Assembly (NCBI GenBank): GCA_963837465.1
Contig: CAWINB010000001.1
Location: 369,929-433,928, forward strand
Direction of reading: 5' to 3'
Origin: Candidatus Doudnabacteria bacterium
Lineage (GTDB): Bacteria > Patescibacteriota > Doudnabacteria > UBA920
Length of the DNA: 64,000 nucleotides
A program made the position numbers and the translations under genes. Below the pieces are notes generated by a model. It saw only the letters and a program-made list of their open reading frames with translations, ran no database searches and had not been told where the DNA came from. The number at the start of each line of letters is the position of its first letter. Position 1 is the first letter of the stretch. Shown here one piece after another: positions 20,976-63,077 of the stretch.

Positions 20976-20991
20976 ACTCCCATCGCGATTT

Positions 20992-33000: not shown

Positions 33001-36000
33001 ATTAAAGCTCCATAGGAATTGGTTAATAAAGTATTACCAGTGGTGGAAGCAATCGGAGCGCCGCTGATAGTTAAGGTGGAAGAAGTGGCAATTGTGTAAG
33101 TTGAAGTCGAAGCCGTACCGTAAGTAATGGGATTAAATAATACATTGTAAACCTGGGAGGCAGGGTTGGCGGCATTGGAAATAATCTCGCTTATGCCGGA
33201 GGCAGTTTCTAGGGAACGATAATCGTAAACGGATTTTAGACTCGGAGTAAGATAAATGCCACGGGTGATACCGGAGGCTGAACCTGTTTGATTGATGGTT
33301 TCCAACGAGGTTACTGCTGCAAAATTTCCTGTACCAGAAGAAGGCTGGAAGTCAGCGTTAGTTCGTCCAATTTCCAATATGCCTCCACTACCATTAGCAT
33401 AGCTTTGTGTTGAGTTTGCAAGAATATTTACTTGATAACAGCCACCACCACAACCATTCCCCCTAACACTCAATGTCCCACCACTTGGAGGTTGAATTTG
33501 ATGCAGTATAAAAACAGACGCATCTGTCTGAATTATCCCCGCTCCGCTCCTGTACAAATCTGCCGTGTCATCGCCAAAGTTGATTCCGTTGGCGGCAGTG
33601 GTGTTAGTGCCACTACCGACAGTTAATAATGCCGCTGGTGTCGTTGTCCCAATCCCCACATTGCCGCCATTAAATATGGCGGCGTAGTTGTTAATGGCGC
33701 CGGTTGGGGCGTTAATAATGGCGCCGTAGGCGTTAGTTACGTTGCTTACAGCGTTACCCTGGATCATTAAAGCCGAAGCATTGGTAACGGTGGCGGTGGA
33801 AGAACCCAGCGGCGTGGCCAGGTTTAAGGTAGAAGCATTGGCTAAAGTGTAAATGGAAGACGAAGCCGAGGCGTAGGTGAACGGATTAAACAGAACATTG
33901 TAAGCCGTGGAAATTGCGGAAGAAGTGGAAAGGGTGGTTGTGGTAGCCGCGACTTCCAAGGAGCGGTAGTCAGCCACGGAAGTTAATATCTGGTTCAAAT
34001 AAAGTCCGCGGGTAATGCCGGAAGCACTGCCGGTTTGGTTAATCTTATTCTGAAATACCATGGTATTCAAAACAGCGGTGCCGGAAGTAGGGCCAAAAAT
34101 ATCACCTGTTGAACCAACTCCAGCTATTCCGTAAGTGCCGCTGGTGCCGGTCATAATATCGCTATTATTGGATAGGGTAATACCTATTGCGGCATTGTTG
34201 GTATTATTACCAGCCAAGGTGATTTGCGTACCACCAGCAGCAACTATAAAACCAGACGGGGTTATTTGGAGGTTGCTACTAATATTCACCCTACCGTTCG
34301 GATTCACCCAGAACAAAGGCAAGCCCGTTGATGAAGCCACGGTAAAAGCGTTAGTCGTACCTGCTGCTCCTACAACCGCCAGAGTGCTTTGCGGCACGCT
34401 CGTTCCAATGCCCACATTACCGTTAGCCGAAACAGTCAGCAAGGAAGAGCCGGATGAGGAGGCTACATTAAATGGATTTAAAATTCCCGATCCCTGAATG
34501 TTGAATGAGACAGTGGAAGAAGTAGCTCCAATGCCCGCAACCGTACCGTTGTCCAGCAGCGCTCCTGCGGTAAGAGTGCTTGGGGAAGTCCAGATGGCGT
34601 CGTAGCCTGTTGTACCGCCGGACAGGGAGCCTGCGGCATTTAAAGTATTACCGCTAAAGCTTAAGCCGGTGCCCAGTTGTACGGATGACAGGTTATTGTT
34701 GGCATCACTCATTACCAAAGAAGAAGGAGTTAAAGTGGCGATACTGACATTGCCGATGGCAGATACATTTAAGTAAGACGAGCCACTGGAAGATGCAATG
34801 GTCAACAGGTTTGAAGTTTGTGAAGATGTGGCGATTATTAAAACCGTTGGCTGGGTGGTGGAAGAAGAGGCTACGGTTAGCTGGGCTGCTGGGGTTGATG
34901 TTCCAAGACCAATATTACCGCCAGCCAATACTTCCATAACCGACGCGCTATTTGTTTCCAAATCCATTAGTGCCTTGGTACCGGTAGCCGAAGACAAAGC
35001 GCCTAAGGTATTTACATAAATAGCCCTAAACCCGCCTCCCCCTGTTGTGCTATCGCCGACGATTATTGACAAACCCTTTGAACTTTGCCCGTTACCGCTG
35101 GAGGCCGTAAAGTTTGTGTTCATCATCTGCTGACTCGTAAGGGAGGTGCCATTTATTTGAAGCCCTGTTACCCCGGCAGTCGGCGATAAAATTAAAAAGG
35201 TGCCCTGTATAAGCCCAGTACTATTAACACTAAATTCACTCGTCCCGCCATTAAATGCTTGGATTAAATTGCCGCTCGTACCTTGGACGGATAAAGCCGC
35301 TGACGGGGTAGTTGTCCCAATCCCCACATTCCCACCCATAAAGGCAGCGGCGTAGTTGTTGGATGCGCCGGAGTTGGCGTTAACGTAGAGGCCGTAGGAA
35401 TTAGTGACGCTGGTAAGCGCTACGCCCTGGATGCTTAAGGCGGTGGAAGATGAAATCGTTGTGGAAGCCGTAGTCCCATTTGGCGCTCCGGCAATGTTTA
35501 AGGTGGAGGCGTTGGCTAGGGTGTAGAGGGAAGAAGAAGCGGAAGTATAGGTAAGCGGATTGAATAATACATTGTATGCTGTGGAAATGTTGGTTGAGGT
35601 GGAAAGAGTGGTGGTGGTGGCTGCGGTTTCCAGGTTGCGGTAGTCAAAGACGGAAGTAAGAGTAGGTGCCAGTATAATTCCTCGGGTGATGCCGGTGGAA
35701 ATTCCGGTTTGGTTAATGGTTGGGTTTATGCTTAAGCTATTAAAAGTTCCTGTTCCCGAAGTCGGCGCAAAAGTATTTTGGATTTGAGCAATACCATTAA
35801 CGCCACTTACCGGAGTTTGGAGGGCATTCTCCGATCCCAAGGTAACTTCGTAACCACTGGTGCTGCTAAGACTTCCTAAAATTTTTATGTTTTCGCTTGA
35901 CCCGCTGTTTTCAATAGTTCCAGAAGTTAGTATGGTACCTATAGTCAAACTACCGACAGCGGTTATATTTCCTGAGCTATCGACTTTAAACCGATTTAAA

Positions 36001-39000
36001 CCGCTATTTTCAAACTGAACAAAATTCCCGCCAAAACTGCTTGGGGAATTAATACCTAAGTATGTGCCATTAGCAGAACCGGCAACCAGCGAGTTGCTGC
36101 CTAAAAGAACAGCCGGTGTAGTGCTGGCAGTTAATGTCCCCCCCGCTGTAGTAGTAGCATCCACAGCCAACTGGGTAGATTGGTTGGCAAAGACTTGCAG
36201 TATAGAGGAGCCGGAAGATGAAGCAACTTTAAACGGATTCAAACTGCCTGTTCCCTGGATGTTAAAGCTAACGGCGGAAGAACTGGCGTTGACTCCAACG
36301 ACCGTACCGTTGTTCAGAAGATCGGCAGACGATGTTAGAGTATTGACGCCATTGTAGTAAGCATCCTGGCCTATGGTACCGGAACCGATATCAGAAGCAG
36401 GGCCGATGTATAATCCCCCTGATCCTGTGGAGTAGACTGTGCCTGCTGTCAGGGAGCTTAAGGTGGTGGAACCTGTTACGTTTAAGCTGTCGCCAATATT
36501 CTGGTTGCCGGTAGCGGTTAGGTTGCCGTTAAAGTACCCGTCCCCTACCACGGAAAGTTGCGAAACCGGCGACGTGGTATTAATGCCAAAGTAACCGGCC
36601 GAAGTAATGACGCTGGAAGTCGCGCCGGAGGTATTGTAAATATCTAAAATGTCAGCGGTCTGGCCCGAAACGGGGGTTAAGCTTAACACCGGCGTGGTGG
36701 AAGATGTGGAACCTACGGCAAGTTTGGCTGTTGGATTAACAACGCCAATACCGACCAAATCTGTGGAGGTGGCCAAGTGGACAATGTTGGGGGAAATCCA
36801 GGTCCAGCCGCCGGCCGAGGAGCCGCCGATGCTGGTAATGGTGCCGCAAGTCAGCTGGCCGCTGCCGTCGGTCTGGATGGCGGAAGCGGAATTATCACAG
36901 TTAAGCACGGCGCCGACGCGCACGTTGCTGCCCGCCACAACATTGCCGCTGGTTTGCAAACTGCCGGCCGTGGCGTTAAGCACGCCAAGCCCCAGGCCGC
37001 CGCTGGCAAAAATATTTCCCGCGACCGAAAAATTGGTTACCGGCGAACTGGAATTTATGCCGACATTGCCATTGGCCAAAATACTTAAAATTTGCGCGCT
37101 GGAAGAAGACGCTACGGCAAAAATCTGCAGCGTGGATTGGGTTGAAGATCCCTGCACTGTAAAAATGGCGGCCGGCGAAGAAGAATTAATCCCCAGCTCG
37201 CTTCCGTTATCAAACAATAACGAATTGCCCGTGGTGGACGAGCCGGTGTATTTAACCAGATAATTGTTCGCGCCGCTGCCGGAAAGTTTGTTGTTAAAAG
37301 CCAGCCAGTCGGAATTTTGCAGCTGGCCGGTGTTGACGGAGGAAGCAAACGGCAGGTTAATGCTGAGGGAGTTTGTGGAAGTTGAGATGTTGAAAATATT
37401 TCCGGTTGTGCCGGTGGCAACATTCGCAATGACGTTTGGGGACAAGCCAATGGCTGTGGAAGTACCGATAATAATTTGGCTGCCATCGCCGCTTGTAAAG
37501 GCAAGGCCGCCGCCCAGGGCCAAATTGCCCAGGGTGGTGGTGCCGGTGCCGCCGCTGGCCGGAGTTAAGGCGCTGGTTAAAGTTAATTGGCTGATGGTGG
37601 TAGTTGCAAGAGTGGAAAGTCCGCTGACATTAATCTGGCCCGCGGTTAAGACAGTAAGAGTTGTGGAAGCAAGCGAGCTGGAGCCGCTCACCGTAAGCCG
37701 GCCAATTGCGGCGTCGGCCAAAGTTGATGTGGCGCCGACGCTTAACTGGCCGAGCAAAGTTTCGTCGCCGGTCAGCAGAGCATCTCCCACCACGCTTAAA
37801 GCGCTGCCCGGTGTTGAAGTGCCGATGCCCAGGTTGCCGCCTGCCGTTACGGTGAGCAAAGTTTGCCCGGAGGCCGATGCAAGCGTAAACAAATTCGTGG
37901 GTGAACCCGTAGCCTGCAAAAACAACTCGGAGCTTGGCGCGGTGGTGCCGATCCCCAAACTGGAACCTGAAAGGAATAAAATGTTTTCCGGGCTTACCGT
38001 CGTGCCAAAGGATTGGTAATAGGCGAAACTGCCGGGCGTCCCCGTCGCTACCCCGCTGCTGCCGCCCGTACCGCTGCCTACCAGGCTCCAGGCCGTACCG
38101 TTAAAAAAATTGTACTGGTCGGTGTCCGTGTTAAAAATCAAAAGTCCGGCGGCGGGGCTGGCAATCGCGTCACGCTGCGCCTGCGTCATGCGCGGCGCCA
38201 AAAATCCCTTGCTGGAAGAATCAAGCTCCAGCAAACTTGACGCGTCCGGAGTCGTAGTGCCTAAGGACAACTGGCTGGTAGAGGCTGTGTAAAATAAATT
38301 GCCGTTATCCTGGCTTAAGCCGTTGGCGCCCTGAAAAACCACGCTGCCGGCGGTGAAACCGGGGTTAATATTTGAAACATTTAAATCGGCAATTGTCGTG
38401 CTGCCGCTAAAAGAGGCGTTGCCGTTAAAATCAGAACCGCCCCGCACGTTCAAAGAAATTATATCGGCCTGGTTGGCGCTCAGCGAGTCGCCGGACAACT
38501 GGCTGAAGCCGGCTATTGAACCTATGGTGCCGTTTGAATTTTCCGAACCTACGTAGGCAATCGGCGCCGCCGGTCCGCCGATAAACGACTGACCCGCCCC
38601 GGCGGGACCTTGCGGCCCCTGGGCTCCCGGCGCTCCGTTTTGCCCTTTGAATTTTCCCCGCGCGAGATAAGCGTTCAGCCTGTCATCAATAATCGAATAA
38701 ACTTGGGATTCGTTCAGACCCAAAAGCTGGTTTATAATTTGCGTTCCATCCTGGCCATTAACCACAACAGGGCTGTTGGCATTATCCGCAATACCGGAGG
38801 TGGAGTTTCGCGCTCCTGACTTGCTGTATAAAATATTTGTAATGCCGCCCCGGACATCCGGTTGTTTGGGGGAAATTAAACTCGACCACGCAACGGAAGC
38901 CACAAGTCCGGTTAGCGCGATAATTCCGGTGGCTAAAATCAGCGGAAGATTTGAGGATACCGGTCTGGCAAAACTGCCGTAAAGCTGTTTGATTTTTTCT

Positions 39001-39782
39001 TTGCCTAAAACCAATCCGGCCAGGAATTCCCCGTTCTGCCGCTGAGGCTCAGTCCCGGTTTCGGAAGGCAAATCAAAATTGGAAACAAAATTTTCCATTA
39101 ACGGCAACCGTTCGGCTGCCCGGGTCACCGCCGGCATGGCAATCGGAACGACCGCCGGAATTGAATTCTGAACCAAAGCTTGCTCCGCTTGGTCCGCGAT
39201 TTTTTTGGTCTTTTGTTCCGCCTCCGCCAAACCCCGTGACAGGGTATCAATACGGTTTTCAATATTTTCAAAAACCTCTTTTTTTAAATTGCTCAGCCGC
39301 ATAATTTGCTCCGGCAATTGCTGGACCGGTAATGCCGGTGCCGAACCAATAATATGCTGCTGGGGTGCTTGGACCTGCTGGTTATTCTGCCCGGACCCTG
39401 GCCGATCCAAACTTTGAATATTCGCTTGCTCGGAGGCAACGTGCACGGGGATTTTGTTTCCCGTCTCGTCCAGGACTTCGGAAATCCCATTTTTGTAATT
39501 TTTTATAAAATCATCCAAAGCCGCCCTGGTTGTTACCCAGTTCCGGCCCATTTTGAAACCCTTTAACTTGCCGGTTCTGCAAAGGAAACCAAGGTAGTCC
39601 TGATGGTAGTGGGTCAGCTTACTGGCCTCGGAAAGGGAAACAAAGTCAGATTGGTTTTGAGCCGGAAAAGGAGGCTGGAACGAAGCGCCGGTTGTCTGCC
39701 TGGAATCCGAAAAGCCCAATCCAATTTCCGTATGGTTTGGTTGGCTCGGGTTTTCTAAATTTTTATCTGTTTTTTCGTCCAC
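21077..39782 (-). CDS. giant (about 6,200 aa) type-II membrane surface protein: cytoplasmic excisionase-type HTH, single TM, extracellular collagen-like / tail-fibre-like / YVTN beta-propeller region, interrupted by at least four frameshifts
   Basis: The track ORFs 26466..39782 (4438 aa), 26096..26881, 25440..26129, 25183..25383, 24213..25031 and 21077..24427 carry the same repeat families (GNVGIGTTTP units, YVSGRYAYVAN blades) across their junctions. N-terminus: HTH LSEASKLTHYHQDYLGFLCRTGKLKGFKMGRNWVTTRAALDDFI, then a coiled coil, a TM LPLILATGIIALTGLVASVAW near aa 285 (positive-inside), the collagen-like stretch GAPGAQGPQGPAGAG, and KGFLAPRMTQAQRDAIASPAAGLLIFNTDTDQYNFFNGTAW. Confidence 0.7.
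25560..27830. repeat. imperfect tandem array of about 120-bp units (16 or more, each one YVTN beta-propeller blade), plus a roughly 370-bp segmental duplication
   Basis: The unit gatgtcaacgacggagatg...tttgccacataggcgtagcggccggagacgtagatggaa recurs with a roughly 120-bp period. The segment 25240..25610 matches 26510..27030 apart from indels. Confidence 0.75.
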
Positions 39783-43436: not shown

Positions 43437-45104
43437 ATGTCCCCGGATTTTTCTAAAATCGGCTACTACGACTTAAAACTGGAAGCGCGAAACCTGCGCC
43501 TGCCCAAAGTTGTGGGCCTGCAAAAGGAAACCGCCCGCTTAAACCGCATCCTGGCGCGCGACCTCCAGCACAACGCCATAGTTTGCGCTCCGTCCGGCTG
43601 CGGCAAAACCGCGCTTGTTGGCGCTTGGGCATTACAGGCGCTTGAAAACCCCTTGTTTGGGGGTAAAAAAATAGCCATGCTGGATTCCGGAAGCCTGCAA
43701 AAAATCGGCCAACTGCCGCAAAGCTCGCTGGCCGGTTATCAGGAAGCTTTCCTGTCGCTTTCAAACTGCGTGTTGATAATAGACAGCTTCGGGGAAATGA
43801 TTTACCAAAGCCTGGGCTCCTTACAAAACTGGAATACTCTTTTAAAGCCGTTATTTTTTAAGCCCGATGTTAATATCATCCTGAATACGCAGCCGGAAGA
43901 ACTGAAATGGCTGCGGGACAACAAGAGCCATTTCTTAAGCCACTTTGAAGTCTTGAAACTGGAAACGCAAAAGACAGAAGAGCTGAGAGAAATTTTAAAC
44001 CAAGCCGCCAAAAAAACCGGCGGGAGGGTTGGCATTGATGCCGATGCCCTGGATTTGATGCTGCGGCTTTGCGAACGTTTCCCAAGCCTGGGACAACTGC
44101 CTAAAAGCGCGCTGCAGTTACTGGATGAATCTTTGGCGGAAATTAAATCCCTCCCGGGCGCGTTATCGCACCGGCTTACGCGAGCGGTTGTGGAAAAAAT
44201 CGCCTCGGAAAAAACCGGCGTTCCCACCGGCCGCCTGGCCGAGGACGATAAAACCATGCTTAAAAATTTACCGGATATTTTGCAAAGCAAAATTATCGGC
44301 CAAAAATCCGCGCTTTTAAAAATGGCTTCGGTTATCCAGCGGGCCCGCCTGGGCCTGCGGGGCCAAACCAGGCCGCTGGGTTCCTTTTTGCTGCTGGGAC
44401 CCTCGGGCGTGGGCAAAACCGAAACCGCCAAAATTTTGGCGGAAACTCTTTACGGTTCCGCTTCCAGCTTTTTAAGAATTGATATGTCGGAGTTCGGCGA
44501 AAGCCACTCCGCGGCGCGCCTGCTGGGCAGCCCGGCCGGTTACGTGGGTTTTGAAGCCGGCGGCCAGCTGACCAATCATTTTAAAAACCATCCTTACAGC
44601 CTGCTGCTTTTGGACGAAATTGAGAAAGCTCATCCGAAAATTTTTGATATTTTTCTGCAAATCCTGGATGACGGCCGGGTAACATCGGGGGGCGGCGAAA
44701 CCGCGGACTTAACGCAGAGCATTATTATGGCCACGTCCAACCTGGCTGTGCAAAAAATTCTGGATGCCTTTGCCGAAAACCCCGAAGCCGGTGATGAAGA
44801 TTTCCTGAAAAATTCCGTCATGCCCGAACTGCTGAAACATTTCCGCCCGGAATTTTTAAACCGCTTTGACAGCATTTTAATTTATAAACCTCTGTCCCTG
44901 GAAGACTTAACCGACATTGCCCTGCTGGAAGTTGGCAAGATAGAAGCCAGGACAAAAGCCCACAATATTAAATTTGCCGTAACCAGGGAAGCGCTGCGGG
45001 ACAAAATCATAGCTCTGGCCGATCCCCGTTTTGGCGCCCGTCCGGTTAAACGCTTTGTGGAAGAAGCCTGTGAAAATCTGATAACGCGGGCGCTGCTTAA
45101 ATAG
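43437..45104 (+). CDS. truncated Clp/Hsp100-family double-AAA+ ATPase (ClpB/ClpC-like, no N-domain or middle domain)
   Basis: The D1 region matches ClpB (RLNRILARDLQHNAIVCAPSGCGKTALV; KIAMLDSGSL; LLKPLF...DVNIILNTQPEE; the sensor region RLCERFPSLGQLPKSALQLLDE) but its Walker B is IIDS, not DE. D2 is canonical: LLLGPSGVGKTETAKILA, LLLDEIEKAHPKIFDIFLQILDDGRVT, SNLA. Confidence 0.8.
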   Translation: MSPDFSKIGYYDLKLEARNLRLPKVVGLQKETARLNRILARDLQHNAIVCAPSGCGKTALVGAWALQALENPLFGGKKIAMLDSGSLQKIGQLPQSSLAGYQEAFLSLSNCVLIIDSFGEMIYQSLGSLQNWNTLLKPLFFKPDVNIILNTQPEELKWLRDNKSHFLSHFEVLKLETQKTEELREILNQAAKKTGGRVGIDADALDLMLRLCERFPSLGQLPKSALQLLDESLAEIKSLPGALSHRLTRAVVEKIASEKTGVPTGRLAEDDKTMLKNLPDILQSKIIGQKSALLKMASVIQRARLGLRGQTRPLGSFLLLGPSGVGKTETAKILAETLYGSASSFLRIDMSEFGESHSAARLLGSPAGYVGFEAGGQLTNHFKNHPYSLLLLDEIEKAHPKIFDIFLQILDDGRVTSGGGETADLTQSIIMATSNLAVQKILDAFAENPEAGDEDFLKNSVMPELLKHFRPEFLNRFDSILIYKPLSLEDLTDIALLEVGKIEARTKAHNIKFAVTREALRDKIIALADPRFGARPVKRFVEEACENLITRALLK

Positions 45105-45109
45105 ACACT

Positions 45110-45228
45110 TAACACGGATATACCGACGCGACGCGGATCTACGGACATCTACTGATTCTAAGAGCCTGGCGACATCCGTAGGCATCGGTAAATCCGTTTC
45201 TAATCCGTATATCCGCGTATATATATTT
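45110..45228. repeat. duplicated intergenic spacer, copy 1 (about 119 bp, runs from stop codon to start codon)
   Basis: The repeat reads taacacggatataccgacgcgacgcggatctacggacatctactgattctaagagcctggcgacatccgtaggcatcggtaaatccgtttctaatccgtatatccgcgtatatatattt and is followed directly by an ATG. Its ends are inverted repeats (cggatatacg / cgtatatccg). TATATAT sits 3 to 4 nt before the ATG. Confidence 0.8.
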
Positions 45229-45531
45229 ATGAGCAACGAAACACTCCATCCCAAAGAATTTCCGCCAATAACTCCGCCGCGAAACGGCGGCGGTACGGAT
45301 AATTTAAGCAAACAGCGGATTCAAAGCCTGGCGGTCCAAAGGAAGCAATGTTTGGAAGGAATCAAACCGGATATTTCCCGCAAGCTTTATTTTATGCTGG
45401 AAGAAAAGCTGGAAAAAGAACAAAAAAACCTGGAAGAAATTCTGGACTGGCAACAGGGAAAATTAAGCCGTCTGTCCAGGTACTCGCTGATTCTGGATTC
45501 GCATTATTTTGAACAGGAATTTTTAAGCTAA
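45229..45531 (+). CDS. hypothetical protein (100 aa)
   Basis: The ORF is bracketed exactly by the two copies of the duplicated spacer. It has a coiled-coil-like C-terminal half and no recognised family. Confidence 0.45.
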   Translation: MSNETLHPKEFPPITPPRNGGGTDNLSKQRIQSLAVQRKQCLEGIKPDISRKLYFMLEEKLEKEQKNLEEILDWQQGKLSRLSRYSLILDSHYFEQEFLS

Positions 45532-45653
45532 CACGGATATACCGACGCGACGCGACGCGGATCTACGGACATCTACTGATTCTAAGAGCCTGGCGACATC
45601 CGTAGGCATCGGTAAATCCGTTTCTAATCCGTATATCCGCGTAATATATATTT
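45529..45653. repeat. duplicated intergenic spacer, copy 2 (about 125 bp)
   Basis: It is near-identical to 45110..45228. It carries one extra gacgcg hexamer and one extra A. It again spans stop codon to start codon. Confidence 0.8.
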
Positions 45654-46943
45654 ATGAACTACGTTACCCTGGGCCACAATGTTTTCCGCGGCAAGTCCAC
45701 ACCCATACAGTTTTTGGATAATGACCGGCTGCGGCATATGTATATGATAGGCAAAACCGGCGTGGGCAAATCCACCCTGTTTGCCAATATGATGCTGCAG
45801 GACATTATTAACCTGCGCGGCGCCTGCTTTATAGACCCTCACGGCGAGGCAATATCGTGGCTGCTGCAAAACATCCCCAAAGGCCGGCTGGAAGATGTGA
45901 TATTGTTTGACCCATCCAATACGGAAAATCCCGTAGGCTTAAATCTCCTGGAAGCTAGCACGGAAAGCGAGCGGGATTTTTTGGTTGGCGAACTTATTGA
46001 AATTTTTTACAAGCTGTTTGATCCGCAAAAAACCGGCATCATCGGCCCGCAATTTGAACATTGGCTGAGAAACGCGGCGCTGACTATTATGGCCGACCCG
46101 GCCGGTGGCAGTCTTTTGGAAATTCCGCGGCTGTTTACCGATAAAAGCTTTGAGCGCCACAAACGCGAATTTGTTAAAGACCCCCAGGTAATGGAATTCT
46201 GGACCGGACAGATGGCTAAAACGAGTGATTTCCACAAAAGCGAAATGCTGAATTATTTTACTTCCAAATTCGGCCACTTTTTAAACAATTCGCTCTGCCG
46301 CAATATCATCGGCCAAAACCACAGCGGCTTTAATTTTGGGGACATTTTAAAAAAAGAAAAAATCCTGCTGGTGGATTTATCCAAGGGAAAAATCGGCGAA
46401 CTTAATTCCAGATTTTTGGGTTTGATTTTAATTTCCAAGCTGCAGGCGGCGGTGCTGAAACGGGCGCGCCTTAAACCCGGCGAGTATCCGCCGTTTTACC
46501 TTTACGTGGACGAGTTCCAGAACATGACCACGGATACTTTTGCCAGCATGCTTTCGGAGTCGCGCAAATACGGGCTTGGCGTGCACCTGACCAACCAGTA
46601 CTTCCAGCAGCTGCCGCAAAATATCCAGGACGCGGTCCTGGGGAACGCGGGCACGCTGCTGAGTTTTGCCCTGGGCGTGGAAGATGCCGAACTGTTGGAA
46701 AAGCAGCTATATCCTTTTACCAAAGAAGACCTGTCCAATTTGGGAAAATTTAATTTTTACATTAAGCTGATGTCCAACGGCCAGGCCACGCAGGCTTTTT
46801 CCGGCATCAGTCAACAGCCCTTAAAGCGGGCCGAAACCGACCACGGCGAAACCATAAAAACCCTGAGCCAGCTGGCCTACGGCAGTCCCCGCCTGCTGGT
46901 GGAACAGGAACTCCAGCGCAGAATAAGAACGAACGGCATTTAG
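45654..46943 (+). CDS. soluble VirD4/TraG/TraD-like (type IV coupling protein family) P-loop ATPase
   Basis: Walker A is YMIGKTGVGKSTL. Walker B plus the downstream motif FYLYVDEFQNMTTDTFASMLSESRKYGLGVHLTNQYFQQL...LGNAGTLLSF matches the TrwB/VirD4 pattern hhhDE...(R/K)K.G....Q...QL. There is no N-terminal TM segment and the protein is only 429 aa. Confidence 0.65.
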   Translation: MNYVTLGHNVFRGKSTPIQFLDNDRLRHMYMIGKTGVGKSTLFANMMLQDIINLRGACFIDPHGEAISWLLQNIPKGRLEDVILFDPSNTENPVGLNLLEASTESERDFLVGELIEIFYKLFDPQKTGIIGPQFEHWLRNAALTIMADPAGGSLLEIPRLFTDKSFERHKREFVKDPQVMEFWTGQMAKTSDFHKSEMLNYFTSKFGHFLNNSLCRNIIGQNHSGFNFGDILKKEKILLVDLSKGKIGELNSRFLGLILISKLQAAVLKRARLKPGEYPPFYLYVDEFQNMTTDTFASMLSESRKYGLGVHLTNQYFQQLPQNIQDAVLGNAGTLLSFALGVEDAELLEKQLYPFTKEDLSNLGKFNFYIKLMSNGQATQAFSGISQQPLKRAETDHGETIKTLSQLAYGSPRLLVEQELQRRIRTNGI

Positions 46944-46965
46944 TGTCAAGGGTGACCCTTGACAC
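46943..46965. repeat. 23-bp perfect palindrome GTGTCAAGGGTGACCCTTGACAC (copy 2)
   Basis: It overlaps the stop codon of the T4CP-like gene. The same element is at 21048..21070. Confidence 0.7.
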
Positions 46966-46978
46966 TAAATGTAAATTT

Positions 46979-47011
46979 AAACCTCCTTGAGGGTAGACCT
47001 CAAGGAGGTTT
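46979..47011. terminator. terminator hairpin between convergent genes
   Basis: aaacctccttgagg-gtaga-cctcaaggaggttt is a perfect 14-bp stem. A T-rich run follows on the plus side. Confidence 0.55.
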
Positions 47012-47053
47012 AGTTTAAATTCTAATTCTTATAAATCAGATAGCTGTCGGATA

Positions 47054-47946: not shown

Positions 47947-50900
47947 TTAAGACAAATTCTGCGGTATCACCAACTCATACCCTACCTTAAGCGTCTTGGT
48001 ATTGCCGGGGATGCTTAAACAACGGGGGTTGGCGGCCAGGATGGCTCTCCAGTTGGAGACGCTGCCCGTCAGCTTTTTGGCAATTCCCGACAGGGTGTCT
48101 CCTTTCTTAACCGTGTAAGTAGTGGAAGCCGACGAGGTAATAGAAGCTCCCTGGACCTGCGGCGATGGTTGCTGCGGATATTCCATCTGCAGTCCCTGGA
48201 AATTGGCCGGCATCTGCAAGCCCGTAAAGGGTTGGGTTACGGCCGCGCCAAGCACGGAAACACCGCCCGTTGCGTTGACTTGAATGCTAAACTGGCAACT
48301 ACTGCTTATGTTCAGCTGGTTGGTAACCTGGACAATAAAATTGTAGGTACCCGCTGTCGTAGGCGTGCCGGAAATTTGGCCGGTGGAAGTGTTAAAGTAA
48401 AGTCCCGGCGGCAAGGAACCGCTGATAAGGCTAAAGCTGGTGGAAGAAGCCCCTCCGACCAAAATATTGCTGTTGTAACCCTGGCCTAAATTAGCCTGGG
48501 GCAAAGAAGTGGTAAGGAAATAAGGATAGTAGGAAGTGCCGTAGCTATAACCATAACTGGTACCCGTCCCGCTGCCGGTTGATGTGCTGCCGGTTGAGCC
48601 GGTATTGCTTGTGCCGGAGTTACCGGAACTTGCGGCCGCGTTAATGGTAATCGTCAAGGGCACGGAACTGCTGACCAGGCCATTGCCATCGGTAACCCCC
48701 GCGTAAAAAGTATAACTGCCGGCTGTGGTTGGGGTGCCGCTTAAGCTGCCATTCTGGCTTAAAGTTAATCCCGGGGGCAAATTTCCGGTATAAGAGAATG
48801 TCAGGGCAGTGTTGCTGGAAGACGAAGCCTGCAAATTAGTGGTCGGGTAAGCCTGTCCAGCCGTGCCATTGGGTAATGATGTTGTGGTTAATACAGGCGG
48901 GGCAACAGCAGAAGCCCCTCCCGAGGCGGCAGCAGGATTAACAGTCAGGCTAAACTGGACTGAAGTAAAATTACCCAGGGAGTCCGTGGCCACAACCGAG
49001 AAACTACTGCTACCGGCCGTGGTTGGAGTGCCGCTGATAAGTCCGGAAGGGCTTAAAGTCAACCCGACCGGCAAGGTACTGCCGGTGGCCAGGGCGAATG
49101 TTATGGCTCCCGTGCCCGTGCCGGACAGGATATTTAACTGCTGGCTATAAGCAGTCCCCACAGTGGCGGCGGGAATGGAAGTCGTGGTGATAACCGGAGA
49201 GGCGGCAGTTCCGGTGGTTCCGGATGTCTGAGCAGCGGAAGACGCGGCGGGCACGGTTACGGAAAGAGCGTTGGAAAACAAAGTGGGATTAGCGCCATTG
49301 GCCACCTGTATTGTATATTGTCCGGCAGACAGGGCGCCATACAGTACCGTAATTTGGCTGTTATTGGCGGAAAGAATGCTTACCCCCATTACCTGGCCGG
49401 CGCTGTTGGTCATATGGACAATATCCGAGGTAGCGTTGGCGGCAAAGCCGCTGCCGGTAATTACTATCGTACCAGCCTGCTGGTTAATCGTGGCAAGGCT
49501 GATGGTGGGGGCAGCAGTGGAGCCGACAACCGCGGAACCTCCTGTTGAGCCTCCGGACGAGCCTGCAACGGTTGAAGCTACCAGCATACTCCATGGCAAA
49601 CTTACAGTATTACCGGCGCTGTCTGTAACAACCACCGTAAAACTGTAAGTGCCGGCTGTGACTGGAGTCCCGGTAATTGTTCCGTTGGCATTTATTGTAA
49701 GTCCAGGCGGAAAATTTCCGCTGCCGGAAAACTTATAGCCTGTACCGCTGCCGCCGACAGCGGAAAACTGCCCAACGTAGGCTACCCCAACCGTAGCCGT
49801 GGGAGTGGCCTGGCCGGTTATGAAAGAGAGGGTCGAAGATGTTGCGGCCGCTCTGCTGGCCTGTACGGTAAAATTTAAATTACCTATTGCCGTGGCCGAT
49901 GATTGAGAAGCACCCACGGACCAGGTTTCCGCCCATGCGCCAATATCAGCGGTTACCATCTGGCCGGATATAACCAAACTGCCCGACGCGGGTATGGTTC
50001 CATAATTGGTTGTCGATAACGCGCCCGCGTTTTGAGAGGCGCTGCCATAAACATTCAAACCAGCGGCACCGGTAATGGTAAGCTGCCAATTATCCCCTAC
50101 GGCCAAAGTGGCGGCATTGGCAGGCGATGTAAGATTGGCAAAAGTCAGGCTGGTGGCCGCGCTGCCCACTGTGGGTCCGTTCACAACAGTCGCTCCTGTA
50201 GTACCGCCGGTTCCGGATCCCGTGGTTGCTGCTGTGGATCCGTTAAGGGCGACCGGATTTGTGGTCGCGGTAGAAGATGGTTTGCCTATGTAATTGGTGG
50301 TGGAAACAAACGAGCCCGGTTGAGCATTAGGGTTGTCGTGATAATATTGAGCCGCGGCTATCTCGCTCTGTACAAATCCTGTAGCCACATTTGCCGGCGA
50401 GGTTACAAACCATTGGGCCAGGTTGCCGGCATTCATTTGGGTACCGTCGGGAAACTGGATCATCCACTGGCTGGCGCCGGCGGCATTGGCTTGGAACGGG
50501 CTGGCCGCAGTATAAGTGGTAATAGGGACCAGTACAGCCGTGCCGCCAAACTGCTGAGCCAGCCACTCGGCAGTTGCCTGGGTGGCATAGTTGGCAGGGT
50601 TAAGCGCCTGACTCTGTCCGGTTGGTAAATAAACTACGGCAGCATTGGTAATAAATGTCGGGGTAAAAGGAACGGTTGCGGGGCTGACTGTAAAATTAAG
50701 GGTATTGCCGACCTGCTTAAGGCTACTGATGCTTGGGTTACTGGGCGGTGTTGCGTTTGCGGCAAGAGAACTTCCAACCATAATGCTGACGCTCCAAGTG
50801 CCGACATCGTTATTTGTTAAAATCGGGCCCATGGTCTGCAAATTACCGTTGGCATCTGTTATTCCAAGGTAAATGGTTCCGTTTTGGTTGATACCATAAA

Positions 50901-53900
50901 CAGGCGCGTTGGGAGTGGCGCCGGTAACGTTAATCACCCAGTTATTTCCAACTCCTATGGTATTGCTGGAGGTGCCAAAGGTACTCATGGTCGCCGTAGA
51001 GCCGGTTACGGGAGTGCCGGTGGGGACTACCCCTTCGCTACCTGTAAGCGAAGGAGCGGCCGGAGAGGTGGCTGACTGCCCTAACTGCGGCGTTACGCTA
51101 AAATTCAGGGTGCCCGCGCTTACTGCCGAACTGCCGCTGGCAGCGCCAATTGTAAATTGCTCGCTCCAATTGCCTACTTGCTGATCGCCGACAGTTCCAG
51201 CCAATACCAACTTGCCGCCTTCAATAGTACCCATCTGGGTAGTAGTCTGGACACCATTTTGGATACTGGTGGCGAACACGGGAGTACCATCTTTAGTGCC
51301 GGCAGGAGCCGTAATAGTAATAGTCCAGTTATTGCCTACGGACAGGTTTGAATTATTGCCTGAGTCGGTGGAAAAACTAACATTGCTGCCCGAAGTACCG
51401 TTAACTACTGTAGGGGTAGCTTGGGCGCCGCTTGACGCAAGAGAATTATTAGCGGCTCCAAGTTGATTATAGGCCTGAACAAACAACTGAAAAACCGCCT
51501 GAGAGACCGGGGTCACGGTACCGGCATTATATGCCTGTAATTGAGAACTAAGACTGGCTAGATTTGAAGCCGTAATCGGCGGAATACCCGCTACCGAGTT
51601 ACCATTGGCATCAACAACAGTTACCGTCACGCTGCCGTTGCTGTTTTGGGTAATTTGGGTAGTAACACCTGCCGGGAGTGTTGCTGGGAGAGAAGGCGCG
51701 GTACCTATGGTACCGGACGACCCGCTCCCGGTGGCGCTGCCCACCGTACCCACGGTTAATTTCTGACTTTGTCCAATGCTGGCAATGGCCGATAAGGTGG
51801 CCTGGGAAATATTGGGATTAAGAGTGCCGTTAACGTAGCCTGAATAAGTGCCATTGGCGTTCTGGACGACCGTAACATCACCATTGATGGCGTTACCATT
51901 GGCATCTGTTCCTACATAAGCCAAAACTCCGGCAGTATTATTGACAGTGGAAGGAAATACTGTATATGGAGTGTTGTCGGTCACGCTACCGGCAGTAAGC
52001 GCGCTTTGGATTGCGGCAACTTGCGCGGCTGAAAATTGATTGGTAATATCAGCACCCGAAGAGTCTAAAATTCTTCCGGTGGAAGTTACGGTAAGAATTT
52101 GAGGTGTATTATTTACATTTATAGTTGCGGACAAACCTCCGCCAGAAACTTGAGTGACAGATGAACTAAGCGTAACAGTAGGATACGCAGTAGTGATGGA
52201 ACCAATACCACTAGCTCCAACAGTAACAGGCTGGCCGCTGGCAGTCGAGTAAGGGGAACCGCCGACCGGTACGTTGTAGTAAGGTGTACCATCGGAAAGA
52301 GTTCCGGCAGGAGTTAGATTTGCGTAAAGAAGCGGCTCGTCCCAGGAATTACTAGAAGCGTTGTAAGTCCATGTATTCCCGGAAGAATCCGTATAGGTTG
52401 CGCCATTGGCCGGGTTGGTTGGAAAAGTTGTTGAAGTTGCCGCAGTAACATTAACAGTCCGGCTTGTCGAAACTGTAGAGTCGTTCGGATCTGTATAGGT
52501 AATGATATAAGTGCCCGCGGGGGAACCGGCAGGGACAACGCCGCTGACCAAGGGAGTGCTACCATCGGAAATAGTGGCGTCGGGATCAGTAAAATACTGG
52601 CCGACAGTCAAGTTCATCACAGAATCACCATTTAATGTTATGGTGGGGGCGGCAGGGGCGGTAACAGTTACAGTCCTTGTTACTGGAGAAGCATTCGTAA
52701 AACTATAGGTAACGGTGTAAGTGCCTGGCTGACTAGTATTAACATTCCCGCTTCCTGTGATATCACTACTAATTTCATTGTCATTTTCATCATAGACGTT
52801 TGCGCCGGCATCCGCCCAAGTACCGCCTTGTTGAACCGTATCGTTGCCAGTATTTAATTTGATTGTGTAGGAAGCATCTTGGGTGGGGTCAGTAACATTA
52901 ACAGTCCGGCTTGTCGAAACTGTAGAGTCGTTCGGATCTGTATAGGTAATGATATAAGTGCCCGCGGGGGAACCGGCAGGGACAACGCCGCTGACCAAGG
53001 GAGTGCTACCATCGGAAATAGTGGCGTCGGGATCAGTAAAATACTGGCCGACAGTCAAGTTCATCACAGAATCACCATTTAATGTTATGGTGGGGGCGGC
53101 AGGGGCGGTAACAGTTACAGTCCTTGTTACTGGAGAAGCATTCGTAAAACTATAGGTAACGGTGTAAGTGCCTGGCTGACTAGTATTAACATTCCCGCTT
53201 CCTGTGATATCACTACTAATTTCATTGTCATTTTCATCATAGACGTTTGCGCCGGCATCCGCCCAAGTACCGCCTTGTTGAACCGTATCGTTGCCAGTAT
53301 TTAATTTGATTGTGTAGGAAGCATCTTGGGTGGGGTCAGTAACATTAACAGTCCGGCTTGTCGAAACTGTAGAGTCGTTCGGATCTGTATAGGTAATGAT
53401 ATAAGTGCCCGCGGGGGAACCGGCAGGGACAACGCCGCTGACCAAGGGAGTGCTACCATCGGAAATAGTGGCGTCGGGATCAGTAAAATACTGGCCGACA
53501 GTCAAGTTCATCACAGAATCACCATTTAATGTTATGGTGGGGGCGGCAGGGGCGGTAACAGTTACAGTCCTTGTTACTGGAGAAGCATTCGTAAAACTAT
53601 AGGTAACGGTGTAAGTGCCTGGCTGACTAGTATTAACATTCCCGCTTCCTGTGATATCACTACTAATTTCATTGTCATTTTCATCATAGACGTTTGCGCC
53701 GGCATCCGCCCAAGTACCGCCTTGTTGAACCGTATCGTTGCCAGTATTTAATTTGATTGTGTAGGAAGCATCTTGGGTGGGGTCAGTAACATTAACAGTC
53801 CGGCTTGTCGAAACTGTAGAGTCGTTCGGATCTGTATAGGTAATGATATAAGTGCCCGCGGGGGAACCGGCAGGGACAACGCCGCTGACCAAGGGAGTGC

Positions 53901-54717
53901 TACCATCGGAAATAGTGGCGTCGGGATCAGTAAAATACTGGCCGACAGTCAAGTTCATCACAGAATCACCATTTAATGTTATGGTGGGGGCGGTCGTGGT
54001 TTGAAGCGGGTCGTTCCAGGTATCAGTAGAAGCGTTGTAAGTCCATACAGTCCCGGAAGGATCAGTATAGGTATCACCATTGCTTGGATTGCTTGGAAAA
54101 TTTGCCAGATTGCTTTTACTAGTTCCTGTGCTAGGGTCAGTAGTCGTTACATCCAAAATCTGACTGTTGGGATCTGATGAAGCATAATAATTACCATCGG
54201 AGCCCAGGTAAACAGTGACTGCCGAGCCGTCACTGACATACCAAGCATTTGTAGGAGTGGTGCTAACGGTGACAGTATTAGGGTCAGTAGTTACACCGCC
54301 GCCATCCCCGCCGCCATCCCCGCCGCCGGAAGCGCCTTGGTCAGAAGCACCCGCGTCGCCGCTAGCGGCAAGCATCTCTTCTGCTTTAGCCTGCTTCGGG
54401 CCTATGGTATTTTGGTAAATGCCGCCGAAAATTTTATTTAACGTATCTTTTATTTTGGATGTGCGGGCTGTTTGCTCCTGGCTCTGCGTGCTGACAAACT
54501 GGGTATCCTGGGTTTTTGGCACTACTGCTCCAGCTCCCCCAAGCAGCGTAGCTCCCACGCCCAAGCCCGCGACCACTTTTTCCTGGGTTGTAATTTTTTT
54601 CTTATTTCGTTTTACGCGTTTTATTTTAACCTTATTCATGGGGTTTTTATAATGATTGGCTGGTGAATGTTTAGGCTCGTGCTTGCGAGTCTTCCCAGGA
54701 GGTTTTGTTTTAGGCAT
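47947..54717 (-). CDS. giant (2,256 aa) TM-anchored surface protein: basic cytoplasmic tail, single TM, tandem Ig-like (DUF5011-type and putative-Ig-type) domains, C-terminal LysM
   Basis: The N-terminus [17 protein letters not shown]...KRVKRNKKK is followed by the TM [19 protein letters not shown]. A 149-aa unit ([28 protein letters not shown]...[24 protein letters not shown] plus [69 protein letters not shown]) is repeated 3.5 times identically. Later regions such as [69 protein letters not shown] are putative Ig domains. The C-terminus is LysM: [31 protein letters not shown]...[10 protein letters not shown]. Confidence 0.85.
   Translation of the reverse strand: [2256 protein letters not shown]
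52440..54000. repeat. perfect tandem repeat, 447-bp unit x about 3.5
   Basis: Identical small ORFs recur in the track at a 447-bp period (52511/52958/53405 and 52879/53326/53773). The repeat lies inside the CDS and encodes two Ig-like domains per unit. Confidence 0.9.
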
Positions 54718-57478: not shown

Positions 57479-58891
57479 TTAATTACTGCTCCAGCTAATC
57501 TGCTGATAACCCGAAGACGACAAAGGAAAGCTCGGCGGCGGGGAATACAATAAATAAGAGTCGTAGTTCTCGTACGTATTGGTGTATCCCGATACCACCG
57601 GTCCGTTGGTGCTGTTTACCCAGTTCCAGGTCCAGGTAGTGTTGCTGGCCAGGGTGCCGTAAACTGTAATTGAATTTTTAAGGCTGCCGGGGTAGTACCA
57701 GAGCTGATCAGCGCCGTTTTGGGCAATAAGCGCGGCGTCAATTTCCAGATTATTGGGCGACTCGTAAGTTACCAGAATATTCTGCTGGCCGATAAGCCCC
57801 AAGGAATTGGTGCCATCTTTGACCGCGTAGACAATATTGTTGGGGATCATAATGTTCGGAGCGGTTAACGAGTTATAAGGCAGCATGGCGGCCGCCACCA
57901 TAACCCGCCCTTTAACCGTCCCCTCCACCCAAACATTGTCTTCAATATAAATAATACCGTTGGCGGGAATTGGTATATTGTAAAGCAGGGTCCGGTTCTG
58001 ATAATCCAGGCTGTTGGTATGCGCGTTGCCGCTGGTATCATAACCTTCCGGCTCCCCTGCCACCAGCGAAGTCACCTTGTAAACATTTACCGTGCCGTTA
58101 TTTTGGAAAACCAGGGAATAGCCCTGGGCGTTGGAAGGCGGTAAAAACAAGCCTCCGCTTTGGGCGCTGCTCTGCAGCGCGGCTAAATTGGCGGTAATGG
58201 AAGAAAAGTCGGTATTGGGTACCGGAAACTGCCAAAAATTCCGGGTTGAGGTTGCCGCGCTCCCCCAAATGCCGTTTTGGGTGGAAGGGCAGGGCGGACT
58301 GCCGTAAATAGCCGCTTCGCAAGTGTAGGTGCTTTTAGCGGACATAATAGGCGCGTTAGCCGTGCCGTCAAAACGGACACCCCCGTTTGTAAAATATTCA
58401 CCGCTGACACTCTCGGTGCTGCCGATCCAGTCGTCGCTGTTGGCCAAAAACGCGTACTGGGCCAAGGAAGGAATGCCGTAGAGTACTGTAACCGTACGCG
58501 CGGCTTGCGGATCCGCCAGGGTGTAACCGGTGGACCGCACGGCGGTTATGGTTGAGCCAATGCTTGGCGGAGTAATAGTCAGGCTGAACCGGCCAATGGT
58601 TTGGCCGGTGCTCTGGTCCACGTAATTATGGACATACGGTCCGGGGGTGGTACTGGCGTTACCGTCCCAAAAATCAGAGGGAAAATTGGCCAGGTGCCAT
58701 TCATAATAATTAGTCCCGGCTTCGGCAATCTGAAAAGCCTGGTCGCTGGCAATGGTACTCCTGGTCACTCGCAATTCCAGGCTGGCCGAACTGAGCAATC
58801 CCACCATAACCAGGCTGAAAATAAAAATCATGATCACCATGTAGATGAGGATGGAGCCGGATTGGGGTTTTTCATTTAAGCATTTAAGCAT
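57479..58891 (-). CDS. PilX-like minor pilin / pilus tip-associated protein
   Basis: The N-terminal hydrophobic helix followed by SSASLELRVTRS matches the PilX_N pattern (..SSLELRMAGN). The 470-aa size and position in the minor-pilin operon fit the call. Confidence 0.6.
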   Translation of the reverse strand: MLKCLNEKPQSGSILIYMVIMIFIFSLVMVGLLSSASLELRVTRSTIASDQAFQIAEAGTNYYEWHLANFPSDFWDGNASTTPGPYVHNYVDQSTGQTIGRFSLTITPPSIGSTITAVRSTGYTLADPQAARTVTVLYGIPSLAQYAFLANSDDWIGSTESVSGEYFTNGGVRFDGTANAPIMSAKSTYTCEAAIYGSPPCPSTQNGIWGSAATSTRNFWQFPVPNTDFSSITANLAALQSSAQSGGLFLPPSNAQGYSLVFQNNGTVNVYKVTSLVAGEPEGYDTSGNAHTNSLDYQNRTLLYNIPIPANGIIYIEDNVWVEGTVKGRVMVAAAMLPYNSLTAPNIMIPNNIVYAVKDGTNSLGLIGQQNILVTYESPNNLEIDAALIAQNGADQLWYYPGSLKNSITVYGTLASNTTWTWNWVNSTNGPVVSGYTNTYENYDSYLLYSPPPSFPLSSSGYQQISWSSN

Positions 58892-58918
58892 AATAGCATT
58901 TAAGCATTATGGCACCGG
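58872..58918. repeat. left arm of the roughly 40-bp imperfect inverted repeat bracketing the four-helix-bundle cassette
   Basis: tcatttaagcatttaagcataatagcatttaagcattatggcaccgg pairs with the reverse complement of 59358..59398 (ccggtgctcccatgcttagatgcttctatgcttaaatgccc). It overlaps the first codons (MLKCLNE) of the PilX-like gene. Confidence 0.65.
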
Positions 58919-59357: not shown

Positions 59358-59398
59358 CCGGTGCTCCCATGCTTAGATGCTTCTATGCTTAAATGCCC
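59358..59398. repeat. right arm of the inverted repeat bracketing the four-helix-bundle cassette
   Basis: See the left arm at 58872..58918. Confidence 0.65.
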
Positions 59399-62432: not shown

Positions 62433-62593
62433 GAACCTGTTTGAAAAAATAATATGCGGGCGGAATTTAAGAATTTTGAGACAAAATATCAAAACAAATT
62501 TTGAGGTTTAACCTTAAGTTAAGCGGAGAAATTTTTTTGGGATTTTGGCCAAAATTCTTAAATCGCGGCCCGAAGTATATTTAAAACAGGTTC
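62433..62593. repeat. palindromic MITE/REP-like element, copy 2 (with a roughly 70-bp insertion in the central loop)
   Basis: It has the same ends and arms as 14274..14364 (GAACCTGTTTGAAAAAATAAT...GGAATTTAAGAATTTT ... AAAATTCTTAAATCGCGGCCCGAAGTAT...AAAACAGGTTC). Confidence 0.7.
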
Positions 62594-62986: not shown

Positions 62987-63008
62987 AAAAAATCGTCCCT
63001 GAACCTGG

Positions 63009-63063: not shown

Positions 63064-63077
63064 TTACAAATAAGCCT

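Follow-up and report, generated by a model that had tools for sequence, protein, structure and literature searches.

Introduction

Correia elements of Neisseria (CREE/NEMIS), ERIC/IRU sequences of enterobacteria, and RUP elements of Streptococcus pneumoniae are full-length palindromic miniature inverted-repeat transposable elements (MITEs), ~100–150 bp long and non-coding. Such elements occupy TA-containing targets near genes or between co-transcribed genes, where the hairpins they add to the mRNA can be cleaved by RNase III, altering transcript stability. REP (repetitive extragenic palindromic) and BIME sequences are lineage-specific palindromes found just past stop codons in operons and can stabilize 3′ ends, as at malE-malF, whereas REPINs consist of inverted pairs of short repeats that form a ~100-nt hairpin. 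Tourist-like MITEs and the IS5-PIF-Harbinger group generate a 3-bp TAA/TTA target-site duplication. In the puf, pap, and mal operons, a stable intercistronic stem-loop right after a stop codon gives the upstream and downstream mRNA segments differing stability. Here, we describe a palindromic element that makes up almost the entire spacer on either side of a 100-aa gene in a 64,000-nt stretch of a Candidatus Doudnabacteria genome (assembly GCA_963837465.1, contig CAWINB010000001.1, positions 369,929–433,928 of the forward strand; hereafter, the window). The small gene lies between genes for a ClpB-like ATPase and a VirD4-like coupling ATPase.

At moderate confidence, we read the two spacers as copies of a MITE/REP-like palindromic element belonging to a Patescibacteria family, recently copied to a second junction and co-transcribed as an mRNA stem-loop. 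A literature search found no description of palindromic repeats or MITEs in candidate phyla radiation (CPR) or Saccharibacteria genomes.

Two near-identical spacers flank the small gene

An end-to-end alignment of the two copies revealed no substitutions over 119 nt and two insertions/deletions (indels). Repeat analysis resolved the identity into two exact blocks, one of 96 nt (45124–45219 = 45548–45643) and one of 26 nt (45110–45135 = 45529–45554), both 100% identical; dinucleotide shuffles give 0 expected matches for a repeat of this kind. The first indel is a 5-nt unit, present as (CGACG)2 in copy 1 versus (CGACG)3 in copy 2 (Table 1), and the second is one additional A in the tail of copy 2. 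Both are of the slippage type and together make up the 6-nt difference in length, which replaces the additional GACGCG hexamer of the original prediction with a CGACG pentamer and a separate single A.

The proposal that a near-identical spacer of ~120 bp lies on either side of a 100-aa open reading frame (ORF), each copy running up to the next ATG, is borne out, and the AT-rich tails abut the ATG directly. The two copies were also said to start at the upstream stop codon. This is true of copy 2, which opens with the small gene's own TAA (45529–45531), but copy 1 begins 5 nt past the TAG of the ClpB-like gene, and its TAA (45110–45112) is out of frame with that gene. The only ORFs over the copies are spurious antisense ORFs, and the element is small and non-coding. 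No third close copy was found in the window by blastn-short, nhmmer, or repeat analysis. A separate assembly (Logan, run ERR10755945, contig L001) contains the copy-2-specific right end GTAATATATATTT-ATG and the downstream gene at 100% identity, which speaks against an assembly artefact; this contig ends within the repeat, as a true repeat would predict.

The element is a full-length imperfect palindrome

Each copy consists of an imperfect palindrome spanning its full length, with a core of ~105 nt and 45-nt arms that are 71% complementary, followed by an 11–12-nt AT-rich tail. The terminal inverted repeat reads CGGATATAC(C)G ... CGTATATCCG and can be extended to ACACGGATATACCG / CCGTATATCCGCGT with 12 of 14 positions matched. 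The left repeat begins 2–3 nt from the end of the unit, and the right repeat is followed by the 11–12-nt tail. Terminal inverted repeats had been noted before and are indeed present, with the sequence of the left repeat corrected to CGGATATACCG. Both arms are assembled from a 9-nt sub-motif, CGGATNTAC, with two forward occurrences in the left arm and two reversed ones in the right arm; at four per copy, the two copies hold eight of the ten matches in the window, where 1.4 are expected. The stem closes at CCGCG and gives way to an AT-only tail, TATATATATTT (45218–45228) in copy 1 and TAATATATATTT (45642–45653) in copy 2.

Pairing of the terminal inverted repeats had been proposed as a check on the element; they do pair, and the palindrome folds better than shuffled sequences. 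On the plus strand, the folds have energies of −37.2 and −38.7 kcal/mol (z = −2.6 and −2.3 versus shuffles), and the minus-strand fold is more stable, at −46.6 kcal/mol (z = −3.3 versus shuffles). The start region is unpaired in the minimum-free-energy folds. We found no consistent sense-strand advantage of the kind expected from G-U asymmetry: the antisense strand folds better in the window, and the better strand varies among the junction hairpins of relatives, which fits a palindrome at the DNA level.

Searches for known structured RNAs were negative. Rfam 15 gave no match at the gathering score in the window, and a permissive search returned one chance microRNA match (E = 5) inside the small ORF; no tRNAs were found. 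Taking an intrinsic terminator as a compact GC-rich stem with a 3–8-nt loop followed by a U-run, we found no site in the spacers, where a long interrupted hairpin precedes alternating UA. Canonical terminators occur elsewhere in the window, at 46977–47013 and near 20990–21025.

The spacers are insertions into tight junctions

We retrieved 15 related loci (L002–L016) and compared the junctions upstream of the ClpB-like gene (j0), between the ClpB-like and small genes (j1), and between the small and VirD4-like genes (j2). Both of the latter junctions are minimal in a Saccharibacteria metagenome-assembled genome (L004), where j1 reads TAA-CCACT-ATG and j2 reads TAG-CTTT-ATG, with only 4 nt. Altogether, j1 measures just 5–10 nt in five loci (L003, L004, L007, L011, and L012), and its 5-nt versions are CCACT (L004), TATTT (L003), CTAAT (L007), and ACTTT (L011). 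Relatives with junctions of 4–10 nt point to an ancestral operon that was tightly packed, to which the ~120-nt spacers were added later. Judged by this comparison, the spacers are insertions into originally tight junctions, and the ACACT that separates copy 1 from the upstream stop codon looks like a remnant of the native junction, comparable to CCACT in L004.

In the original prediction, insertion or duplication of the element also involved the small ORF. This does not hold: the 100-aa gene is found at the same place in all 15 related loci, including those with 4–5-nt junctions that lack the element, and its presence with or without spacers indicates that the element did not deliver it.

Insertions at these junctions are common. 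At j2, a spacer of 65–185 nt consisting of a repeat or hairpin is found in 12 of the 14 related loci in which this junction is visible, and only L004 is tight; at j1, seven related loci have a spacer of at least 70 nt. In two lineages, j2 has received a 23S_rRNA_IVP (four-helix-bundle) gene (L005:8344–8720 and L011:8687–9058), and the L005 gene appears disrupted. For 15 of 20 inserted spacers, folding gives z ≤ −3 on at least one strand, with a stem that spans nearly the whole spacer. As in the window, the hairpin arms of relatives are typically built of short sub-repeats, here TACGAA, GTAG, GATATT, CTAATT, ATCAGCG, and (GATGATAA)7. The L009 spacers are pure tandem repeats, (GATGATAA)7 at j2 (L009:5956–6042) and (GTTAAAAT)3 at j0 (L009:3976–4026), which shows that slippage-driven expansion contributes to junction spacers. 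In L002, a contig from a JGI metagenome, j1 and j2 contain the same element, which has no sequence relationship to that in the window, and both copies begin at a TAA stop.

Related elements occupy other junctions in other lineages

Family profiles were searched with nhmmer over 209 kb, comprising the window and the loci of relatives. With only the two window copies as input, the profile matched L005:6091–6192 over model positions 1–115 (E = 1.1e-10). This site is j0 of another lineage, a non-orthologous junction, in a locus whose small-gene protein is 52% identical. The termini are best kept, with 9 of 9 positions in the left TAACACGGA and 17 of 18 in the right TCTAATCCGTA-ATCCGC, and 14 nt, TAAGCTAACACGGA, are identical in L005 j0 and window j2. 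The L005 homolog carries a different tail, TAATAAAACCC. A consensus fold of the two copies and this homolog is one long hairpin of 34 pairs; covariation is weak, with 1 compensatory pair versus 9 pairs broken in L005. In window j2 and L005 j0, TAA stands on both sides of CACGG...CCGC, whereas window j1 reads TAA...TA-, all in an AT-rich, low-complexity context. TAA on both sides is compatible with a 3-bp target duplication, although TAA/TTA could also belong to the inverted repeat.

Within the window, the pilB/pilC junction contains a further candidate (Table 1). The 9-mer AACACGGAT and the 10-mer AATCCGTTTC occur in the window only in copy 1, in copy 2, and here, at 18048 and 18123, in the same order and on the same strand as in the copies and with a spacing of 75 versus 80 nt. 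The surrounding hairpin (17996–18169) folds at −48.9 kcal/mol on the plus strand versus −29.0 kcal/mol on the gene-sense minus strand. When this sequence is left out of the profile, the site is not recovered, and we regard it, tentatively, as a probable old, decayed relative of the element.

Two other families show a similar distribution. The CGAA family is found in j2 of both L012 and L013 and in j0 of L014 (E = 7e-10). The GTAG family, with a common 17-mer, TAGCTTGTAGNNGGTAG, is found in j2 of L003 and L014 as well as in j1 of L010 (E = 6.6e-5). Identity between the L012 and L013 j2 elements is 83.5%, compared with 72%, 59%, and 74% for the flanking ClpB-like, small-gene, and VirD4-like DNA, respectively. 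The CGAA-type j2 hairpins of the closest relatives, L012 and L013, are at best doubtful homologs of the window element: the alignment is unconvincing, and neither profile matches the other family. The two are alike only in style (TACGGA versus TACGAA sub-repeats) and in a CGTAA-AT tail.

Searches beyond the related loci returned nothing of the family. An exact 20-mer of the element had 0 matches in a collection of genome contigs, two element 20-mers had 0 matches in viral contigs, and blastn of the element against plasmids and phages gave nothing. A gapped terminus pattern had 5 matches in viral contigs, all attributable to chance and none recognized by the element profile.

Origin of the two copies

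The original prediction offered a portable promoter, a 5′-end cassette, or a MITE. The MITE is best supported, by the palindrome, the empty orthologous junctions, and the L005 homolog, and the promoter part is not supported (see below). Also in favor of the MITE are the probable decayed member at the pilB/pilC junction, the CGAA and GTAG families, which likewise sit at different junctions in different lineages, and the other dispersed palindromic repeats and the insertion sequence (IS) present in the genome. In this scenario, the family would insert at TAA/AT-rich stop-to-start junctions of once tightly packed operons, presumably mobilized by a transposase acting in trans. One junction would have been colonized first, probably j2, because there the TAA of the unit is the real stop codon of the small gene. 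The last codon of that gene is AGC (Ser), where most relatives have Asn, and this AGC coincides with the GC that flanks the element in L005. A second (local) transposition, or recombinational copying that included a few flanking bases, would then have brought the whole unit to j1, at a distance of 424 bp. Because the copies have TATATATTT in common past the end of the family sequence, recombination, and not clean transposition, may account for this second step. The lack of substitutions between copies, set beside flanking-gene homologs of just 54–82% protein identity, suggests that the copying was recent or that the copies have been homogenized. An origin by tandem duplication followed by deletion is less parsimonious, as it requires a precise 300-nt deletion without microhomology.

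The element, having no promoter of its own, would be transcribed inside the ClpB-like/small gene/VirD4-like mRNA. There, the stem-loop would extend from at or near the upstream stop codon to ~10 nt before the next ATG, with the AT-rich start region, which lacks a Shine-Dalgarno site, remaining single-stranded. Such an insertion could cost the operon its tight translational coupling and might act as a hairpin that protects 3′ ends or is processed in the manner of RNase III substrates.

Several observations weigh against a mobile element. The 64 kb contain just two close copies, which are neighbors. The window yielded neither a transposase with matching ends nor, by tblastn with the Y1_Tnp protein of L011, a Y1/RAYT-like gene. 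Past the terminus that comparison with L005 defines, both copies carry TATATATTT(ATGA), a flank that would not be copied in a clean transposition. The sequence around the putative TAA duplication is AT-rich and of low complexity, and at j1 the duplication is imperfect. Finally, all significant cross-lineage family matches in the 209 kb searched lie in the three junctions of one operon, which a randomly inserting MITE would not predict.

Alternative explanations

This last observation also supports the strongest alternative, which we regard as possible though doubtful. The spacers could be structured, operon-specific sequences, that is, selected cis-acting hairpins at j0, j1, and j2 rather than transposons, with the whole spacer copied from j2 to j1. 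Such stems might control mRNA processing or stability and thereby set the ratio of the small protein to the ATPases, or might bring stop and start codons close together for reinitiation without Shine-Dalgarno sites, and they would spread between junctions by recombination or gene conversion. Several findings agree with this. The duplicated unit runs exactly from TAA to ATG, including 9–10 nt past the conserved terminus of the family, and an arrangement with one element flanking the small gene on both sides has arisen at least twice (window and L002). The j2 junction is so regularly filled that L004 alone is tight, nearly spacer-long stems prevail among the inserted spacers, and the L012/L013 j2 hairpins are conserved above the level of the flanking coding DNA. 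Copying would be helped by microhomology, as the upstream genes end in L-L/F-L-N/K/S-stop and the downstream genes start with ATGA-C-ACG. On the other hand, a single family turns up at different junctions depending on the lineage and, in the opposite orientation, probably at pilB/pilC as well; folding shows no sense-strand bias; the comparison with the L005 homolog yields far more broken than compensatory pairs; and several lineages have no spacer at j1, one of them (L004) having none at either junction. The present analysis could not separate this explanation from a MITE, which we nonetheless consider the more probable.

A broader proposal, which we put forward only tentatively, is that the three junctions of this one Patescibacteria operon are a dedicated habitat for a few palindromic families (the ATCCG, CGAA, and GTAG types) that cycle between junctions, are sometimes homogenized on both sides of the small gene (window, L002), and can exceed the flanking genes in conservation (L012/L013). 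If true, it would imply a new site-specific, stop-codon-anchored mechanism of insertion or copying or, alternatively, a selected system of operon-specific cis hairpins for processing, stoichiometry, or control of reinitiation without Shine-Dalgarno sites.

It is unlikely that the element is a portable promoter or leaderless 5′-end cassette, with the TATATAT box serving as a −10 site and each downstream mRNA starting at its ATG. The box is present but abuts the ATG directly instead of lying 3–4 nt before the start codon. The best case for a promoter is copy 2, where TAATAT (45642–45647) stands 6 nt before the ATG, much as TAAAAT precedes the ATG by 6 nt at j2 of L012 and L013, and −10 boxes are known to arise from the ends of Correia-type elements. 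Yet a sigma-70 scan found no site in 45105–45228 or 45532–45653, and inspection of hexamer geometry by eye showed no −35-like hexamer at 16–18 nt and no TG extension. Copy 1, which lacks the additional A, loses the TAATAT-6-ATG geometry, and its sole A2/T6 hexamer, TATATT (45222–45227), ends 1 nt before the ATG. The recognizable promoters of the window are canonical, with TTGACA-N17-TATAAT sites in, for example, the intergenic regions 10734–10977 and 20268–20435, and have leaders of 6–35 nt. Nor is the AT-rich box specific to the element. It matches the general start context of the genome: in 28 genes with an ATG start, positions −12 to −1 are 75% A+T versus 51% overall. The different tail of the L005 homolog also counts against a conserved promoter. 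Shine-Dalgarno-like (GGAG-like) tetramers precede 2 of the 28 starts, which is the background rate, and the window genes show no Shine-Dalgarno usage.

Still less probable is an array of protein-binding sites, in which the inverted CGGATNTAC sub-repeats (2 + 2 per copy, ~19–25 nt apart) would act as operator, iteron, or oriT-like sites for the small protein, the DNA-binding coupling ATPase, or a regulator. The concentration of the sub-motif in the two copies, the short sub-repeats in the arms of other families (TACGAA, GTAG, GATATT, ATCAGCG), and the conservation of the L012/L013 sequence above coding level would be in line with such a role. However, the spacing of the sub-repeats differs between copies (19 versus 24 nt), no relaxase gene lies nearby, and the small protein is modeled, at moderate confidence, as a disordered tail and a helical hairpin with no recognizable DNA-binding fold; slippage within a palindrome explains the sub-repeats equally well. 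Finally, an assembler that wrongly doubled one spacer would account for copies without substitutions and for the Logan contig that breaks within the repeat, but we consider this scarcely credible, as two indels distinguish the copies, each copy has unique flanks of its own, the copy-2-specific variant recurs in a separate assembly, and the unrelated metagenome contig L002 has a similar layout on both sides of the gene.

The host operon

By gene order, the predicted ClpB-like/small gene/VirD4-like operon is conserved across Patescibacteria. Relatives keep a wider order of a gene for a large unknown protein, the ClpB-like gene, the small gene, and the VirD4-like gene, followed on the other strand by genes for a DsbA-like protein and a giant LysM protein. 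The ClpB-like gene is syntenic in L004, L005, and L009–L014; its NCBIfam matches to ClpB/ClpV/ClpA fall under their cut-offs. A search with the VirD4-like protein gave 6140 homologs at E ≤ 1e-60, whose source names are from Patescibacteria. About 5,700 homologs of type IV coupling proteins are described in Patescibacteria, where they are widespread and mostly located away from virB4 (PMC12102498).

The 100-aa protein has no Pfam or NCBIfam match. Across 13 aligned loci, its homologs are 37–57% identical and share a C-terminal motif, YSLILDxHYFEQEFL, that is invariant or nearly so. In an AlphaFold2 model with a predicted local distance difference test (pLDDT) score of 71, helices span residues 22–45, 51–89, and 91–99.

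Table 1 Coordinates of the palindromic element and its host genes, in window positions.
Feature	Coordinates	Strand	Description
Probable decayed family member (tentative)	18048–18132	+	pilB(T2SSE)/pilC(T2SSF) junction; opposite orientation relative to transcription
ClpB/ClpA-like AAA+ ATPase gene, upstream cistron	43437–45104	+	555 aa; TAG stop 45102–45104; Pfam AAA_2 (3.7e-53), ClpB_D2-small
ACACT between TAG stop and copy 1	45105–45109	+	5 nt; resembles leftover of native tight junction
Copy 1 of palindromic element	45110–45228	+	119 nt: TAA, hairpin core 45112–45218, AT-rich tail 45218–45228
Left arm of copy 1	45112–45156	+	CGGATATAC 45115–45123, (CGACG)2 45124–45133, CGGATCTAC 45134–45142
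Right arm of copy 1	45174–45218	+	Reverse-complement sub-motifs GTAAATCCG 45188–45196, GTATATCCG 45207–45215
Conserved 100-aa gene	45229–45531	+	Disordered N-terminus, three helices; no assigned function; native to operon
Copy 2 of palindromic element	45529–45653	+	125 nt: first 3 nt are the small gene's TAA stop; (CGACG)3 45543–45557; tail TAATATATATTT 45642–45653
VirD4/TraG-like type IV coupling-protein ATPase gene, downstream cistron	45654–46943	+	429 aa; Pfam TrwB_AAD_bind, DUF87, TraG-D_C

Other repeats in the window and related loci

Repeats unrelated to the operon junctions are also present in the window. An 87-nt full-length palindrome, ACCTGTTTGAAAAATAATTCGCGGGCGGAATTTAAGAATTTT...AAAATTCTTAAATCGCGGCCCGAAGTATTTTTAAAACAGGTTC, lies between convergent genes at 14276–14364, and a second copy with the same ends and ~80 nt of additional interior is found 48 kb away, at 62434–62600; together they form a separate, dispersed MITE-like family. 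A 23-nt palindrome, GTGTCAAGGGT[C/G]ACCCTTGACAC, occurs twice (21048–21070 and 46943–46965; 0 expected), each time adjoining a canonical terminator, and the second copy overlaps the VirD4-like stop codon. The intergenic hairpins at 12187–12265 and 62987–63077 have in common AAATCGCGGC[A/G]GAAA[T/C]GGATCTTT[T/C]C[A/G]GACAGCCTCTGAG and represent a third small repeat family. An intercistronic hairpin at 8031–8112 is made of GTTAGC/GTTTAGC sub-repeats, and a similar sequence, GGTTAGCGTATAGCGT, lies at 11785–11802, just upstream of the L20 gene. A 125-aa gene on the minus strand (58956–59333) is bracketed by a 39-nt inverted repeat (58880–58918 and 59358–59396; 82% complementary, 439 nt apart), whose arms are 16-nt tandem sub-repeats, AGCATTTAAGCATNAT. 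Here, too, a small gene lies between related spacers, in inverted orientation unlike the element studied.

The single IS of the window (1475–2720) has 40-nt terminal inverted repeats, 83% complementary, and encodes a Mutator/IS256-family transposase of 306 aa that covers profile positions 162–367 of 379 and may be truncated. A relationship with the palindromic element was rejected, as the terminal repeats are unrelated. In L011, a 145-aa Y1_Tnp protein (IS200/IS605-type) is encoded on the minus strand at L011:11802–12239, 1.4 kb downstream of the VirD4-like gene, in a hairpin-flanked position and with no counterpart in the window. The minus strand of the window also encodes giant repetitive surface-type proteins of 4438 aa (26466–39782), 1116 aa (21077–24427), and 2256 aa (47947–54717), the last containing three 100%-identical 447-nt tandem repeats at 52443–53783.

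Significance and comparison with known elements

Taken as a single case, the finding is modest: a new family of small palindromic repeats in a CPR genome. A tightly coupled operon in a very small genome without Shine-Dalgarno sites accepts a 120-nt insertion at two junctions, and the insert folds on itself and leaves the AT-rich start region free. The comparative pattern matters more, as unrelated or distantly related hairpins recur at exactly these junctions and one family can be found at different junctions in different lineages. Should this pattern hold in a large survey, it could define a target-specific class of mobile palindromes or, alternatively, regulatory intercistronic hairpins in a widespread, uncharacterized ClpB-like/VirD4-like module of Patescibacteria.

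Measured against what identifies a MITE, the element is small and non-coding, has terminal inverted repeats, and is variably present or absent at orthologous sites and present at non-orthologous ones; no cognate autonomous IS with the same termini was found within the window. Tourist-like and IS5-PIF-Harbinger elements would match in the TAA on both sides of window j2 and L005 j0, although a duplication is uncertain in such AT-rich sequence, and no related transposase was found in the window. The puf, pap, and mal stem-loops resemble the element as stable intercistronic hairpins that start right past a stop codon. They are single, locus-specific, and vertically inherited, whereas here a repeat family occupies different junctions in different genomes.

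REP/BIME sequences and the REPIN-RAYT system share with the element the character of a lineage-specific palindrome just past a stop codon in an operon. REP units, however, are 20–40 nt long, very abundant, and tied to a REP-flanked RAYT (Y1 transposase) gene, while the window has 2–3 copies and no Y1 gene. With Correia, ERIC, and RUP elements, the element has no sequence similarity at its termini (here TAACACGGATATAC...), and those families reach tens to hundreds of copies per genome, compared with two close copies and one doubtful copy in 64 kb. It differs further in its arms of 9-nt sub-repeats and its strong bias for the junctions of one operon. The likeness lies in size, in the non-coding, full-length imperfect palindrome with terminal inverted repeats, in the location inside an operon, and in lineage specificity. 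By analogy, MITEs of the Correia/ERIC/RUP type, together with REP/REPIN sequences, appear to be the closest known counterparts of the element, both functionally and structurally.

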